Assembly (NCBI RefSeq): GCF_003018255.1
Contig: NZ_CP027440.1
DNA length: 64,000 nucleotides
DNA from: Escherichia coli
Lineage (GTDB): Bacteria > Pseudomonadota > Gammaproteobacteria > Enterobacterales > Enterobacteriaceae
Direction: 5' to 3' (one strand)
Shown here: piece after piece, positions 13,772 through 25,226 of the stretch
Layout of the letters: the number at the start of each line of letters is the position of its first letter
Numbering within the stretch: the first letter of the stretch is position 1
Position numbers and translations under genes: made by a program
Notes under the pieces: generated by a model
What the model was told of the DNA's origin: nothing
Seen by the model: the letters and a program-made list of their open reading frames with translations, nothing else
Database searches by the model: none

Positions 13772-15629
13772 TGAACTTGATGCCGGTGATGTGCTGGCGG
13801 TTGAAAATCTGAATATTGCCTTTATGCAGGACCAGCAGAAAATAGCTGCGGTCCGCAATCTCTCTTTTAGCCTGCAACGCGGTGAGACGCTGGCAATTGT
13901 TGGCGAATCCGGCTCTGGTAAGTCAGTGACTGCGCTGGCATTGATGCGTCTGTTGGAACAGGCGGGCGGTTTAGTGCAGTGCGATCAAATGCTGTTGCGG
14001 CGGCGCAGTCGTGAAGTGATTGAACTTAGCGAGCAGAGCGCTGCACAAATGCGCCATGTGCGCGGTGCGGATATGGCGATGATATTTCAGGAGCCGATGA
14101 CATCGCTGAACCCGGTATTTACTGTGGGTGAACAGATTGCTGAATCTATTCGTCTGCATCAAAACGCCAGTCGTGAAGAAGCAATGGTCGAGGCGAAGCG
14201 GATGCTGGATCAGGTACGCATTCCGGAGGCACAAACCATTCTTTCACGTTATCCGCATCAACTCTCTGGCGGGATGCGCCAGCGAGTGATGATTGCGATG
14301 GCACTGTCATGCCGCCCGGCGGTGCTGATTGCCGATGAGCCAACCACCGCGCTGGATGTCACTATTCAGGCGCAGATCCTGCAATTAATCAAAGTATTGC
14401 AAAAAGAGATGTCGATGGGCGTTATCTTTATCACTCACGATATGGGCGTGGTGGCAGAGATTGCCGATCGGGTACTGGTGATGTATCAGGGCGAGGCGGT
14501 GGAAACGGGTAGCGTCGAACAGATTTTTCATGCACCGCAACATCCTTACACCCGTGCGCTGTTAGCTGCTGTTCCGCAACTTGGTGCGATGAAAGGGTTA
14601 GATTATCCCCGACGTTTCCCATTGATATCGCTTGAACATCCAGCAAAACAGGAACCACCCATCGAGCAGAAAACGGTGGTGGATGGCGAACCTGTTTTAC
14701 GGGTGCGTAATCTGGTCACCCGTTTCCCTTTGCGCAGCGGTTTGTTGAATCGCGTAACGCGGGAAGTGCATGCCGTTGAGAAAGTCAGTTTTGATCTCTG
14801 GCCTGGCGAAACGCTATCGCTGGTGGGCGAGTCTGGCAGCGGTAAATCCACTACCGGGCGGGCGTTGCTGCGCCTGGTCGAATCGCAGGGCGGCGAAATT
14901 ATCTTTAACGGTCAGCGAATCGATACCTTGTCATCCGGTAAACTTCAGGCTTTGCGCCGGGATATTCAGTTTATTTTTCAGGACCCTTACGCTTCGCTGG
15001 ACCCACGTCAGACCATCGGTGATTCGATTATCGAACCGCTGCGCGTACACGGTTTATTGCCAGGTAAAGAAGCGGCTGCACGCGTTGCGTGGTTGCTGGA
15101 GCGCGTGGGCCTGTTACCGGAACATGCCTGGCGTTACCCGCATGAGTTTTCCGGCGGTCAGCGCCAGCGCATCTGCATTGCTCGCGCGTTGGCATTGAAT
15201 CCAAAAGTGATCATTGCCGACGAAGCCGTCTCGGCGCTGGATGTTTCTATTCGCGGGCAGATTATCAACTTGTTGCTCGATCTCCAGCGTGATTTCGGCA
15301 TTGCGTATCTGTTTATCTCCCACGATATGGCCGTGGTAGAGCGGATTAGTCATCGTGTGGCGGTGATGTATCTCGGACAAATTGTTGAAATTGGTCCACG
15401 GCGCGCGGTCTTCGAAAACCCGAAGCATCCTTATACGCGTAAATTACTGGCGGCAGTTCCGGTCGCTGAACCGTCCCGACAACGACCGCAGCGTGTACTG
15501 CTGTCGGACGATCTTCCCAGCAATATTCATCTGCGTGGCGAAGAGGTTGCAGCCGTCTCGTTGCAATGCGTCGGGCCGGGGCATTACGTCGCACAACCAC
15601 AATCAGAATACGCATTCATGCGTAGATAA
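13758..15629 (+). CDS. gsiA: Glutathione ABC importer ATPase (two fused ABC domains)
   Basis: TTG start giving [10 protein letters not shown]; two Walker A motifs (GESGSGKS twice); the ORF track start at 13650 is an upstream extension. Confidence 0.85.
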
Positions 15630-15648
15630 CATTCAGGCGGAGAATAAA

Positions 15649-17187
15649 ATGGCAAGAGCTGTACACCGTAGTGGGTTAGTGGCGCTGGGCATTGCGACAG
15701 CGTTGATGGCATCTTGTGCATTCGCTGCCAAAGATGTGGTGGTGGCGGTAGGATCGAACTTCACCACGCTCGATCCGTATGACGCAAATGACACGTTATC
15801 TCAGGCCGTAGCGAAATCGTTTTACCAGGGGCTGTTCGGTCTCGATAAAGAGATGAAACTGAAAAACGTGCTGGCGGAGAGTTATACCGTTTCCGATGAC
15901 GGCCTTACTTACACCGTGAAACTGCGGGAAGGAATTAAATTCCAGGATGGAACCGACTTCAACGCAGTGGCGGTAAAAGCGAATCTGGACCGGGCCAGCG
16001 ATCCGGCGAATCATCTTAAACGCTACAACCTGTATAAGAATATTGCCAAAACGGAGGCGATCGATCCGACAACGGTAAAGATTACTCTCAAACAGCCGTT
16101 CTCAGCGTTTATTAATATTCTTGCCCATCCGGCGACCGCGATGATTTCACCGGCAGCGCTGGAAAAATATGGCAAGGAGATTGGTTTTCATCCGGTGGGA
16201 ACCGGGCCGTATGAACTGGATACCTGGAATCAGACCGATTTTGTGAAGGTGAAAAAATTCGCGGGTTACTGGCAGCCAGGATTGCCCAAACTGGACAGCA
16301 TAACCTGGCGTCCGGTGGCGGATAACAACACCCGCGCGGCAATGCTGCAAACCGGTGAAGCGCAGTTTGCTTTCCCCATTCCCTACGAGCAGGCCGCACT
16401 GCTGGAGAAAAACAAAAATATCGAGTTGATGGCCAGTCCGTCAATTATGCAGCGTTATATCAGTATGAACGTGACGCAAAAGCCGTTCGATAACCCGAAG
16501 GTCCGTGAGGCGCTGAATCACGCCATTAACCGCCCGGCGCTGGTGAAAGTGGCCTTCGCGGGCTATGCAACGCCAGCTAGTGGTGTGGTACCGCCGAGTA
16601 TCGCCTACGCGCAAAGTTATAAACCGTGGCCTTACGATCCAGTGAAAGCGCGCGAATTACTGAAAGAGGCGGGATATCCCAACGGTTTCAGTACCACGCT
16701 GTGGTCGTCACATAACCACAGCACCGCGCAGAAAGTGCTGCAATTTACCCAGCAGCAGTTAGCGCAGGTCGGGATTAAAGCCCAGGTGACTGCGATGGAT
16801 GCCGGACAGCGGGCGGCAGAAGTCGAAGGTAAAGGGCAAAAAGAGAGCGGCGTGCGGATGTTCTACACTGGCTGGTCGGCTTCAACCGGCGAAGCCGACT
16901 GGGCTCTATCGCCGCTGTTTGCCTCGCAGAACTGGCCACCAACGCTGTTTAATACCGCGTTTTACAGCAATAAACAGGTGGATGACTTCCTGGCTCAGGC
17001 ACTGAAAACTAATGATCCGGCGGAAAAGACCCGCTTGTATAAGGCGGCGCAGGATATCATCTGGCAAGAGTCGCCGTGGATCCCGCTGGTGGTAGAAAAA
17101 CTTGTGTCGGCACACAGTAAAAACCTGACCGGTTTTTGGATCATGCCAGACACCGGCTTCAGCTTTGAAGATGCGGATTTGCAATAA
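15649..17187 (+). CDS. gsiB: Glutathione ABC importer periplasmic binding protein
   Basis: ATG giving [26 protein letters not shown] (signal peptide); SBP family 5; the ORF track start at 15382 overlaps gsiA and is not used. Confidence 0.9.
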
Positions 17188-21571: not shown

Positions 21572-22900
21572 ATGTCCAGAATCAATAAGTTCGTACTTAC
21601 AGTCAGTCTGCTGATTTTTATCATGATTTCAGCAGTTGCCTGCGGGATCTACACTCAAATGGTAAAGGAACGGGTGTATAGCCTGAAACAGTCCGTTATT
21701 GATACTGCTTTTGCGGTGGCAAATATTGCTGAATATCGGCGTAGCGTGGCAATTGATCTTATCAACACGCTAAATCCCACGGAGGAACAGCTGTTGGTTG
21801 GCTTACGCACAGCTTACGCCGACTCGGTTTCACCCTCTTATTTGTACGATGTCGGTCCTTATCTGATTTCCAGTGACGAATGTATTCAGGTAAAGGAGTT
21901 CGAGAAAAATTATTGTGCAGATATTATGCAGGTTGTGAAGTATCGACATGTCAAAAATACAGGGTTTATCTCTTTTGATGGTAAAACCTTCGTCTATTAC
22001 CTCTATCCGGTAACTCACAATCGTAGTCTGATATTTTTGCTTGGTCTGGAACGTTTTTCTTTACTGTCAAAATCGCTGGCGATGGATAGCGAGAACCTGA
22101 TGTTCTCCCTGTTCAAGAACGGTAAATCGGTGACCGGTGATGAATATAACGCTAAAAACGCCATCTTCACTGTTTCGGAAGCGATGGAGCACTTCGCCTA
22201 TTTGCCGACCGGGTTGTACGTATTTGCTTATAAAAAAGACGTTTATTTTCAGGTATGTACATTGATTATTTTCTTTGCCGCATTGGTGGCAGTGATATCG
22301 GGTGCCAGTTGCCTCTATCTGGTACGCAGAGTGATTAATCGTGGTATTGTGGAGAAAGAAGCCATTATTAATAACCATTTTGAACGCGTACTGGATGGCG
22401 GGCTTTTCTTTTCGGCTGCCGATGTCAAAAAACTCTACAGTATGTATAACTCGGCATTCCTGGACGATCTGACCAAAGCGATGGGCAGAAAATCCTTTGA
22501 CGAAGATTTAAAAGCGCTGCCGGAAAAAGGCGGTTATTTGTGCCTGTTTGACGTCGATAAATTCAAAAACATTAACGACACCTTCGGTCATTTGCTGGGC
22601 GATGAAGTGTTGATGAAAGTGGTGAAAATCCTTAAATCACAGCTCCCCGTAGATAAAGGTAAAGTCTACCGCTTCGGCGGTGACGAATTTGCGGTGATTT
22701 ATACGGGTGGAACGCTGGAAGAGTTGCTATCGATTCTAAAAGAAATTGTTCATTTCCAGGTGGGAAGCATTAATTTAAGCACCAGTATCGGTGTAGCGCA
22801 TTCAAATGAATGTACTACCGTCGAACGCTTGAAAATGCTGGCGGATGAGCGACTGTATAAGAGTAAGAAAAACGGCAGGGCGCAGATTAGCTGGCAGTAG
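21572..22900 (+). CDS. dgcI: Membrane diguanylate cyclase (GGDEF domain)
   Basis: 442-aa ORF; GGDEF motif (RFGGDEF) near the C-terminus; 7-nt gap after pdeI. Confidence 0.85.
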
Positions 22901-22913
22901 AATTAGAATAGTG

Positions 22914-22941
22914 TTAGTACCCCTTAATCAAGGGGTACTAA
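22914..22941. repeat. 28-bp perfect stem-loop at the dgcI-distal edge of the two-gene cassette
   Basis: TTAGTACCCCTT-aatc-AAGGGGTACTAA: 12-bp perfect arms, 4-nt loop, no U-tract on either strand. Confidence 0.7.
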
Positions 22942-22969
22942 TGAATGTGGTAAATCATTTGCAAACATT

Positions 22970-23299
22970 TTACTTTGCAAAAACTTCCGGCCCTTTTATT
23001 GCCAATGTATTCAAAATACGTAATGCCGGGCCGCTCGGTTTTATTTCATTACGTTCCCATTTCGAGACACTTTCTTTTGACATTCCCATTGTATGTGCCA
23101 GCACGGATTGTGACATGCCGTATCGGGTGCGGATGGCTTTGATCTCTTCACCCGTCATTGATTTGACTTTGGCTATACGGGCGCTGACTTCACGAGCTTT
23201 GACCATGACGGCAATGGCATCAACTTCACTATCAGACATCAGGCCCAGTGCATTCAGTTCCTTTGCATCTTCCAGCATCATTTGTAATTTATCGCTCAT
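22970..23299 (-). CDS. HTH (XRE/MqsA-C-terminal-like) DNA-binding protein; candidate antitoxin and autorepressor
   Basis: 109-aa ORF; C-terminal HTH region (YGMSQSVLAHTMGMSKESVSKWERNEIKPSGPALRILNTLA); GAGGTG Shine-Dalgarno; ATG overlaps the upstream ORF's stop by 11 nt. Confidence 0.7.
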   Translation of the reverse strand: MSDKLQMMLEDAKELNALGLMSDSEVDAIAVMVKAREVSARIAKVKSMTGEEIKAIRTRYGMSQSVLAHTMGMSKESVSKWERNEIKPSGPALRILNTLAIKGPEVFAK

Positions 23300-23675
23300 T
23301 TTTCACCTCAATCAAAAAGCCAGTTTCGATCAAATCCTCTATTTGCTTATTGCTAAAGGCCAGAAATGCATTTGCCATTTTTTTGTAGGCCGCCAGTTCA
23401 TCATCTTCGATTTCTTTGGTTCCTTTACTGCTTAGACCACTCTTGGACCAACCATCATAAAAAAACACATGATTTGCTGATTTAAAAAAGATAATTGTTC
23501 TGGCTCCACCACTCTTTCCTTGTTGGAGGGGTAAACGTTTTTTGATGACACCGCTACCTAAATCAGCCTCCCATATGCCCTGAATCACTTCTTCAGCGGC
23601 AGCCATGAGAACTTTATCGTGAATACCAAGTTTTTTCGTGCTTTGGCTGAATCGTCTTGCCTTATACACACCCAT
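23289..23675 (-). CDS. RelE/ParE-superfamily-like toxin candidate (DUF1044/COG4737-type, GKSGGxR motif)
   Basis: 128-aa ORF; AGGA Shine-Dalgarno 7 nt upstream of the ATG; conserved DLGSGVIKKR...GKSGGARTIIFF core typical of this toxin family; AT-rich relative to flanking core genes. Confidence 0.65.
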   Translation of the reverse strand: MGVYKARRFSQSTKKLGIHDKVLMAAAEEVIQGIWEADLGSGVIKKRLPLQQGKSGGARTIIFFKSANHVFFYDGWSKSGLSSKGTKEIEDDELAAYKKMANAFLAFSNKQIEDLIETGFLIEVKNER

Positions 23676-23690
23676 ACATCCATCCTTGTG

Positions 23691-23727
23691 GTAATGTTTA
23701 CTATAGTAACCATTACGCTTATTTCAA
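23691..23727 (-). promoter_or_regulatory. Sigma70-like promoter (-35 TTGAAA, 16-nt spacer, -10 TATAGT) overlapped by a 26-bp palindromic operator
   Basis: Minus-strand read TTGAAA-N16-TATAGT; palindrome GTAATGTTTACTATAGTAACCATTAC (23691-23716) contains the -10 and sits about 15 nt upstream of the toxin ATG. Confidence 0.6.
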
Positions 23728-23900
23728 GTAATTGCGATCAAAACTTTAATTTGGTGTGAAAAAGTGAGAGTTGCCTCGAGTACGATTCATTTTTCTCGAT
23801 TTATGCGTCAGGGGATTTTGTGCGTAAGGGTAGGACATCGGGAAGGGTAGCAGAGGCAGATCGAAGAACAATATCCTTGTTAGATCTGCCTTAAGATTAA

Positions 23901-25226
23901 TTAAACCCGGCTACCCCACAAATCGTACTCATCGGCGTGCTCGACTTTCACACGCAGGATATCACCCGGCTTAACGTTGGTTTCACCATTGAGATAAACC
24001 GCGCCGTCGATTTCCGGTGCATCTGCCATGCTGCGACCAATCGCACCTTCTTCGTCCACTTCGTCGATAATCACCAGAATTTCACGGCCCACTTTCTCTT
24101 GCAGGCGCTCGGCGGAAATCTGCTGCTGCAACTGCATGAAACGGTTCCAGCGTTCTTCTTTCACTTCTTCCGGAACCTGGTCAGGCAGGGCATTGGCGTC
24201 TGCACCTTCAACCGGGCTGTATTTAAAGCAGCCAACGCGATCCAGACGTGCTTCTTTCAGGAAGTCGAGTAGCATCTGGAAATCTTCTTCCGTCTCGCCA
24301 GGGAAGCCGACAATAAAGGTTGAGCGTAGGGTCAGTTCCGGGCAGATTTCGCGCCACTGTTTGATGCGCGCGAGTTGGCGATCTACAGAACCCGGACGCT
24401 TCATCAGTTTGAGAATGCGCGGGCTGGCGTGCTGCAACGGAATGTCCAGATAGGGCAGGATTTTGCCTTCTGCCATCAGTGGGATGACGTCGTCCACATG
24501 CGGATAAGGGTAAACGTAGTGCAGACGTGTCCAGATCCCCAGTTTCGATAACTGTTCGCACAGGCTGACCATGCTGGTTTTTACCGGCTCGCCGTTGTGG
24601 AAGCCAGTACGATGTTTAACATCGACGCCATAGGCGGAAGTATCCTGCGAGATCACCAGAATCTCTTTAACGCCCGCATCAACCAGACGTTTCGCTTCAC
24701 TTAACACTTCGCCAATCGGACGGCTCACTAGGTCGCCGCGCATAGACGGAATAATGCAGAAGGTGCAGCGGTGATTACAGCCTTCAGAAATTTTCAGATA
24801 GGCATAATGACGCGGCGTCAGTTTCACACCTTGTTCTGGCACCAGGCTCAGGAATGGGTTGTGTTTCGGTTTTGGCACGTAGTGATGAACGTGCTCCAGA
24901 ACCTGCTCATAGCTATGAGGCCCGGTGATTTCCAGCACTTTCGGGTGGACTTCGCGGATCTGATCTTCTTTTGCCCCCAGACAACCGGTCACAATTACCT
25001 TGCCGTTTTCATTCAACGCTTCACCAATGGCTTCCAGTGATTCTTGTACCGCGCTGTCAATAAAGCCGCAGGTGTTGACGATCACCATGTCCGCATCGTC
25101 ATAGCTCGGTACCACGTCATAACCTTCAGTGCGTAGTTCGGTGAGAATACGCTCTGAATCGACAAGGTTTTTCGGGCAGCCAAGGGAAACAAAGCCGATT
25201 TTCGGCTGGGGAGTTACTTTGCTCAT
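23901..25226 (-). CDS. rimO: Ribosomal protein S12 methylthiotransferase (radical SAM)
   Basis: 441-aa ORF; N-terminal MTTase domain; radical-SAM motif CNHRCTFC; C-terminal TRAM domain. Confidence 0.9.

Follow-up and report, generated by a model that had tools for sequence, protein, structure and literature searches.

The higBA operon of Proteus vulgaris (Rts1) reportedly has its toxin gene first, an antitoxin with an Xre-type helix-turn-helix (HTH) and two inverted-repeat operators, O1 and O2, that overlap promoter elements. The promoter of E. coli mqsRA carries two palindromes. In the higBA2 system of Vibrio cholerae, for which structures exist (PDB 5JAA, 8A0W/8A0X), the HigA2 antitoxin is a dimer that contacts DNA via helices α2/α3 and represses in vivo, and its footprint is one inverted repeat, TGTACGC-N5-GCGTACA, extending from after the -35 over the -10 (PMC11006873). 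HigB2 is the characterised member of the PF06296 toxin family, and the toxin of Rts1 higBA is of the HigB type, PF05015 or PF09907 (PMC11980606, Table 1). AntitoxP of Coxiella burnetii QpH1, alone and complexed with its toxin, shifts the promoter in EMSA, and PtoxP is repressed in cells carrying toxP/antitoxP; the exact site was left unmapped in this published promoter-binding work (PMC10098735). HigA2 of A. baumannii represses its own promoter, and the toxin enhances the repression (PMC5906591). MqsA binds AACCT-N3-AGGTT (PMC4894380), which shows that arms of 4-5 bp with a 3-bp spacing can be read by an Xre-type HTH dimer.

The locus analysed here lies in an E. coli window of 64 kb, by which we mean the whole stretch of DNA that was studied (64,000 nucleotides). 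A ~1-kb insert (22901-23895) is found there between dgcI, which ends at 22900 on the plus strand, and rimO (25226-23901, minus strand), and it carries a two-gene cassette in which the toxin ORF lies 5' of the antitoxin ORF on the same strand, with an 11-nt overlap; homologs keep the same order. With a probability that we put at roughly 85%, judging from the sequence and from comparison with relatives, the palindrome in front of the toxin gene serves as the autoregulatory operator of a type II toxin-antitoxin (TA) operon of the HigBA2 family, consisting of two 11-bp sites within a σ70 promoter. The features are as follows.

22915-22940, no strand assigned: stable GC-rich hairpin in the gap where dgcI and the antitoxin gene converge (minus strand, z = -4.3; plus strand, z = -4.8)
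22970-23299, minus strand: antitoxin gene, 109 aa, predicted repressor (HTH_3, HigA2 profile match)
23289-23675, minus strand: toxin gene, 128 aa, PF06296, HigB2-type RelE-fold toxin (Pfam, family profile)
23683-23687, minus strand: Shine-Dalgarno AAGGA of the toxin gene (sequence; GG-rich column at the same offset in homologs)
23691-23701, minus strand: putative operator unit O2, GTAAACATTAC (homolog conservation; motif rarity)
23691-23716, no strand assigned: composite palindrome O1 + TATA + O2 (sequence, simulation)
23700-23705, minus strand: predicted -10 hexamer TATAGT (promoter scan; TATA conservation in homologs)
23706-23716, minus strand: putative operator unit O1, GTAATGGTTAC, GTAA-N3-TTAC (arms conserved and N3 variable in homologs)
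23722-23727, minus strand: predicted -35 hexamer TTGAAA of the cassette promoter (promoter scan; TTG-type hexamer in homologs)
23855-23892, minus strand: stable hairpin just 3' of the rimO stop, within the insert (-16.2 kcal/mol, z = -3.6)

The toxin matches the full model (1-120) of Pfam PF06296 "RelE" with E = 3.3e-32. The antitoxin has an HTH_3 domain at residues ~50-96 (E = 3e-9) with SKESVSKWERNE as the recognition helix region, and residues 1-45, N-terminal to the HTH, are poorly conserved. The closest solved relative of the antitoxin is V. cholerae HigA2 (E = 3e-12 for the family profile against the PDB, E = 6e-4 by single-sequence phmmer), while V. cholerae HigB2 is reached from the toxin by the family profile only (E = 1e-4), single-sequence phmmer giving no match to the toxin in the PDB. 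The E. coli toxin has K45, R47, R59, W76 and K78 at the places that the profile alignment assigns to the HigB2 active-site residues K49, R51, R64, Y82 and K84 (PMC10098735). Four of the five catalytic residues are identical and are invariant in 22 homologs; Tyr82 is replaced by a tryptophan which is itself nearly invariant in the homologs. NCBIfam assigns no family to the toxin, the RefSeq annotation of the two genes is RelE/ParE-family toxin and HTH protein, and similarity of the antitoxin to MqsA and NadS is sub-threshold. Its gene order, toxin family and antitoxin domain place the cassette among the HigBA2/PF06296 modules. A literature search found no publication specific to the E. coli cassette.

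What separates dgcI from rimO is an insertion/replacement polymorphism: of 5426 complete E. coli genomes, 1128-1135 (~21%) carry the cassette, O157:H7 strains and EAEC 042 among them, and in cassette-free (K-12-like) genomes the gap is filled by 45 bp of spacer containing another hairpin (CAGGCCGG...CCGGCCTG). The junctions of the cassette showed neither repeats nor mobility genes. Across the 1135 E. coli genomes with the cassette, identity in the promoter region never falls below 99%, so that a within-species comparison has no power as a test of constraint. The hairpin at 23855-23892, GGCAGATC...GATCTGCC, has no T-run after it and may, if it works as a terminator, insulate the cassette from rimO read-through. 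The one at 22915-22940, TAGTACCCCTTAATCAAGGGGTACTA, is a second near-perfect 26-bp palindrome placed just past the antitoxin stop, likewise without a T-run, and probably serves the cassette as a transcription stop in both directions. Stable hairpins at both ends of the insert fit a self-contained transcription unit.

The earlier note had described a 26-bp palindrome with one mismatched pair and a perfectly self-complementary core in front of the toxin gene, and both parts of the description are accurate. In GTAATGTTTACTATAGTAACCATTAC (23691-23716, plus strand) 12 of 13 pairs are self-complementary, the sole mismatch being at positions 7/20, and its inner 12 bp, TTACTATAGTAA, have no mismatch at all. 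Allowing one mismatch at most, the window contains just two palindromes of 26 bp, this one and that at 22915-22940, against a mean of 0.037 expected per window in 300 first-order Markov simulations of the 64 kb, none of which (0/300) reached two. The promoter proposed on the minus strand, TTGAAA (23727-23722) followed after a 16-nt spacer by TATAGT (23705-23700), was recovered by a consensus promoter scan, with 10 of 12 consensus matches and as the top promoter match in 22800-24000. The Shine-Dalgarno AAGGA (23687-23683) and the ATG (23675-23673) of the toxin gene follow closely downstream, as had also been stated, with 24 nt from the -10 to the ATG. By sequence and promoter scan the inverted repeat overlaps the core promoter of the cassette operon. 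O1 occupies the promoter spacer and abuts the -10. Of the -10 hexamer, the first four bases, TATA, separate O1 from O2, and the last two, GT, open O2, which reaches roughly to the predicted transcription start; the two units are 15 bp apart centre to centre. A weak promoter-like match, ATGTCA-17-TACAAT (23088-23116, minus strand), lies inside the antitoxin gene; it is probably due to chance and is too far downstream for an internal antitoxin promoter. Exact GTAANNNTTAC occurs three times in the 64 kb, two of them in the palindrome. The third, GTAAAGATTAC at 16075-16085, falls within a 601-aa ORF (15382-17187, plus strand). We considered a wider regulon within the window and rejected it: this sole further exact copy is intragenic, 0.6 are expected per window, and it is most likely a chance occurrence.

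Scanning one genome per species by means of a toxin alignment gave a set of 62 homologous loci, whose proteins are 33%-99% identical to the query. We scored the composite GTAA-N3-TTAC-TATA-GTAA-N3-TTAC within 100 nt upstream of the toxin start and found it in 47 of the 62 loci, with 14-20 of the 20 specified positions and with its end always 13-24 nt before the start codon. As controls, 2294 random 100-nt segments of the same loci had a median best score of 10 and never exceeded 16. The recurrent order in the 47 loci is -35, [GTAA-N3-TTAC], TATA, [GTAA-N3-TTAC], Shine-Dalgarno, ATG. The Enterobacterales are represented by Escherichia, Kluyvera, Siccibacter, Photorhabdus, Xenorhabdus, Proteus, Morganella, Providencia, Pantoea, Enterobacter, Pectobacterium, Pluralibacter and Phytobacter, and the set further includes many Legionella. 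In all motif-bearing loci TATA(G/A)T is 22-33 nt from the start codon, and a TTG-type -35 hexamer is found 15-19 nt (mostly 16-18) upstream of it in 28 of 44 homologous regions. Column information in the 42 distinct upstream regions, counts which overstate independence since the aligned sequences are phylogenetically related and Legionella is over-represented, is 1.0-2.0 bits at most arm and TATA positions (one arm position has 0.93), at most 0.7 bits per column in both N3 blocks, and mostly below 0.7 bits in the 20 columns upstream of the motif, one of which reaches 1.04. Despite the excess of Legionella, the pattern extends across orders. In these 42 sequences the TATA columns vary hardly or not at all, and this could reflect promoter function alone.

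Several individual loci deserve a remark. One (L002; JAIJJM010000872.1, a contig of 1198 bp from a 'Collinsella sp.' MAG) is 99% identical to the E. coli cassette, operator included, and is almost certainly an E. coli fragment that was wrongly binned into an Actinomycetota MAG. Six others (L030, L048, L059, L060, L062 and L063) have truncated or frameshifted toxin ORFs of 42-110 aa; all six keep the operator-type motif, and in L048, L059 and L060 the antitoxin ORF is intact despite the damaged toxin ORF, which suggests recurrent decay of the toxin with the repressor retained. Six Legionella loci (L033, L034, L036, L052, L056 and L063) have, upstream of the two main units, a third and degenerate repeat of the GTAAA type (GTAAAATATA / GTAAAGTATA), which overlaps the -35 region and is possibly one more half-site.

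In cassettes of more distant relatives just one N3-spaced palindrome is seen; it directly abuts the -10, at the position of O1, and its arms are different ones, which include CAC/GTG, GCAC/GTGC and GGAC/GTCC. Representative sites and the helix regions of the corresponding antitoxins are listed here.

L059: CCAC-TAG-GTGG, helix region SLSTVRKWEIG
L057: TCAC-TTA-GTGA, helix region SLSTVRQWEIG
Coxiella QpH1: TCAC-TTA-GTGA, helix region SVSTVKQWELGE
L044: GCAC-TTA-GTGC, helix region SKSTVQKWEQG
Sinorhizobium: GCAC-GGA-GTGC, helix region SESTVQKWETG
Halomonas: ACAC-TAT-GTGT, helix region VSRNLISDWERG
Trichlorobacter: GGAC-TTG-GTCC, helix region VSVDTISKWEQG

In the GTAA/TTAC clade the helix region reads (S/T)(K/V)(E/D)SVSKWER or TPSTYQKWER. 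The arm sequence shifts together with the recognition helix of the antitoxin, a correspondence that is qualitative and group-wise.

What is the unit read by the antitoxin then? The earlier note treated the whole 26 bp as the operator. The repressor-site part of that proposal is supported, as the layout is conserved while the flanks diverge, but the functional unit is most likely the 11-bp GTAA-N3-TTAC palindrome, present in two copies which share the -10 TATA. The E. coli palindrome is nearly perfect over its 26 bp, two of the three N3 pairs being also complementary, as would suit one antitoxin dimer or a toxin-bridged tetramer reading it whole, for example via contacts with the central TTAC-TATA-GTAA plus the outer arms; such symmetry, however, arises automatically when two palindromic 11-mers flank a palindromic TATA. 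Complementarity of the N3 blocks across the units, which amounts to 41/108 in 36 distinct homologs, is not above chance (34.8 ± 4.5; 41 was reached in 192 of 2000 shuffles), and so we rejected the 26-bp palindrome as a single selected unit. The columns of highest conservation in the 42 sequences, TAC-TATA-GTA, would favour a single site, and so would the central and outer arm complementarity, conserved as well as that within the units. Since unit-internal, central and outer arm symmetries are all equally well kept, arm conservation is uninformative on the binding centre. There are also loci with a single unit, in Pantoea (L022/L035) and Providencia (L016), where an intact 11-bp palindrome adjoining the -10 is kept, and the distant relatives and Coxiella have one N3-spaced palindrome; a single 26-bp operator is unlikely in our opinion. 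In many relatives TATA flanks the outer sides as well, resulting in TATA-GTAA-N3-TTAC-TATA of 19 bp, which is the length of the V. cholerae HigA2 site (PMC11006873). We put forward only tentatively that in the GTAA/TTAC clade the recognition sequence and the -10 are fused, so that there would be two such 19-bp sites sharing one TATA, which is the -10. In this case the two dimers, 15 bp apart, would occupy nearly opposite sides of the double helix, with only the toxin or the disordered N-termini available to connect them. The promoter would then be a switch sensitive to the toxin:antitoxin ratio and mechanistically distinct from the single-site V. cholerae system.

The conserved bases might instead be contacts of RNA polymerase, the sigma factor or another host factor in a plain promoter to which no antitoxin binds. 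The conserved TATA(G/A)T and -35-like hexamer and the AT-richness of the motif agree with this, but GTAA/TTAC in the spacer or 3' of the -10 is not a σ70 requirement, the arms vary with antitoxin subfamily while TATA stays constant, and homologous antitoxins bind at this position (PMC10098735, PMC11006873), so we consider it very improbable. An element acting in RNA, as a hairpin of the 5' leader or of rimO read-through RNA that serves as terminator, processing site or translational control, can practically be dismissed. Although rimO lies upstream on the same strand and read-through RNA would include the palindrome, the hairpin predicted for it has little stability (-7.7 kcal/mol, z = +0.65, equalled or bettered by 149 of 200 shuffles), there is neither a T-run nor a terminator call at the palindrome, and a far stronger hairpin stands directly 3' of rimO. 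Transcripts from the predicted promoter would include no more than about 3 nt of the palindrome, and the pattern of N3 and loop-proximal conservation matches DNA half-sites, not a stem. We thus rejected an RNA hairpin or intrinsic terminator here on the z value against shuffles and the lack of a terminator call. We attach equally negligible weight to a recombination or insertion site of a mobile cassette, or a chance AT-rich palindrome. The cassette is indeed an indel in ~21% of E. coli genomes and higBA2 of V. cholerae is integron-borne, but the palindrome lies ~180 bp inside the insert, away from the junctions, stands at a constant distance from the start codon in genomic contexts that are unrelated to one another and has the low expectation of 0.037 per window given above.

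The preferred reading, that of an autoregulatory operator with two 11-bp units, is supported by the conservation of the layout in many genera while the flanking DNA diverges, by arms that change with the recognition helix in distant relatives, and by the binding and repression of the same promoter position by V. cholerae HigA2 and Coxiella AntitoxP (PMC11006873, PMC10098735). We propose that a dimer of the 109-aa antitoxin would sit on each of O1 and O2 via its C-terminal Xre-type HTH. With the spacer, the -10 and the start site covered by bound antitoxin, RNA polymerase would be excluded and transcription of both toxin and antitoxin shut off. Loss or depletion of the antitoxin would relieve the repression and allow the promoter to fire. 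The toxin is a probable co-repressor, by analogy with the relatives. For the E. coli cassette itself we infer the binding, the two-dimer stoichiometry and a transcription start near 23693.

The analysis provides an exact, testable map of the predicted operator and promoter for a TA cassette found in about one fifth of sequenced E. coli. It also suggests a family rule for PF06296 cassettes, in which an N3-spaced palindrome abuts the -10 and its arms track the antitoxin recognition helix; such a rule could guide studies of specificity and the design of orthogonal repressor-operator pairs.

How does the cassette compare with the known systems? As in V. cholerae higBA2, the operon is toxin-first, the toxin is of the PF06296 type, the HTH at the C-terminus of the antitoxin is an Xre one and the probable operator, an inverted repeat, starts after the -35 and covers the -10. 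However, protein similarity to V. cholerae is low by single sequence, the operator there is one 19-bp site of 7-N5-7 while here there are two 11-bp GTAA-N3-TTAC sites, and the four published base-contacting residues of HigA2, R68, E71, N72 and R77, are all replaced, by E, S, K and E in the register of the profile alignment (PMC11006873). The Coxiella pair toxP/antitoxP is homologous to the E. coli pair over the full length (35% identity for the toxin, 33% for the antitoxin). Its promoter, PtoxP of QpH1, reads TTGACA-aatagt-TCACTTAGTGA-TATAGT and has the same plan, namely -35, 6 nt, an 11-bp N3-spaced palindrome and TATAGT. The difference is that Coxiella has a single unit with TCAC/GTGA arms and another helix, against two units in E. 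coli. With E. coli mqsRA the cassette shares the toxin-first order and a putative HTH dimer site with 3-bp spacing between short arms, and the antitoxin HTH is weakly similar to the C-terminal domain of MqsA. Nevertheless, the antitoxin scores 47.1 bits against TIGR03830, where the cut-off is 61.8, it has no zinc-binding (CxxC) N-terminal domain such as that of MqsA and no cysteine in its 109 aa, and the toxin is PF06296 and not MqsR; the cassette is therefore not MqsRA. The arms, AACCT/AGGTT in the mqsRA operator and GTAA/TTAC here, also differ and have the N3 spacing alone in common, so that we rejected MqsA membership on the bit score, the zinc domain and the arms. Like higBA of Rts1, the cassette has a toxin-first operon, an Xre-HTH antitoxin and two probable operators overlapping promoter elements, but the Pfam family of the toxin differs and the operator sequences are unrelated. 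No new kind of mechanism is revealed by the cassette operator: dual operators overlapping TA promoters are well known from higBA of Rts1 and from mqsRA, so that it represents an ordinary type of control element.
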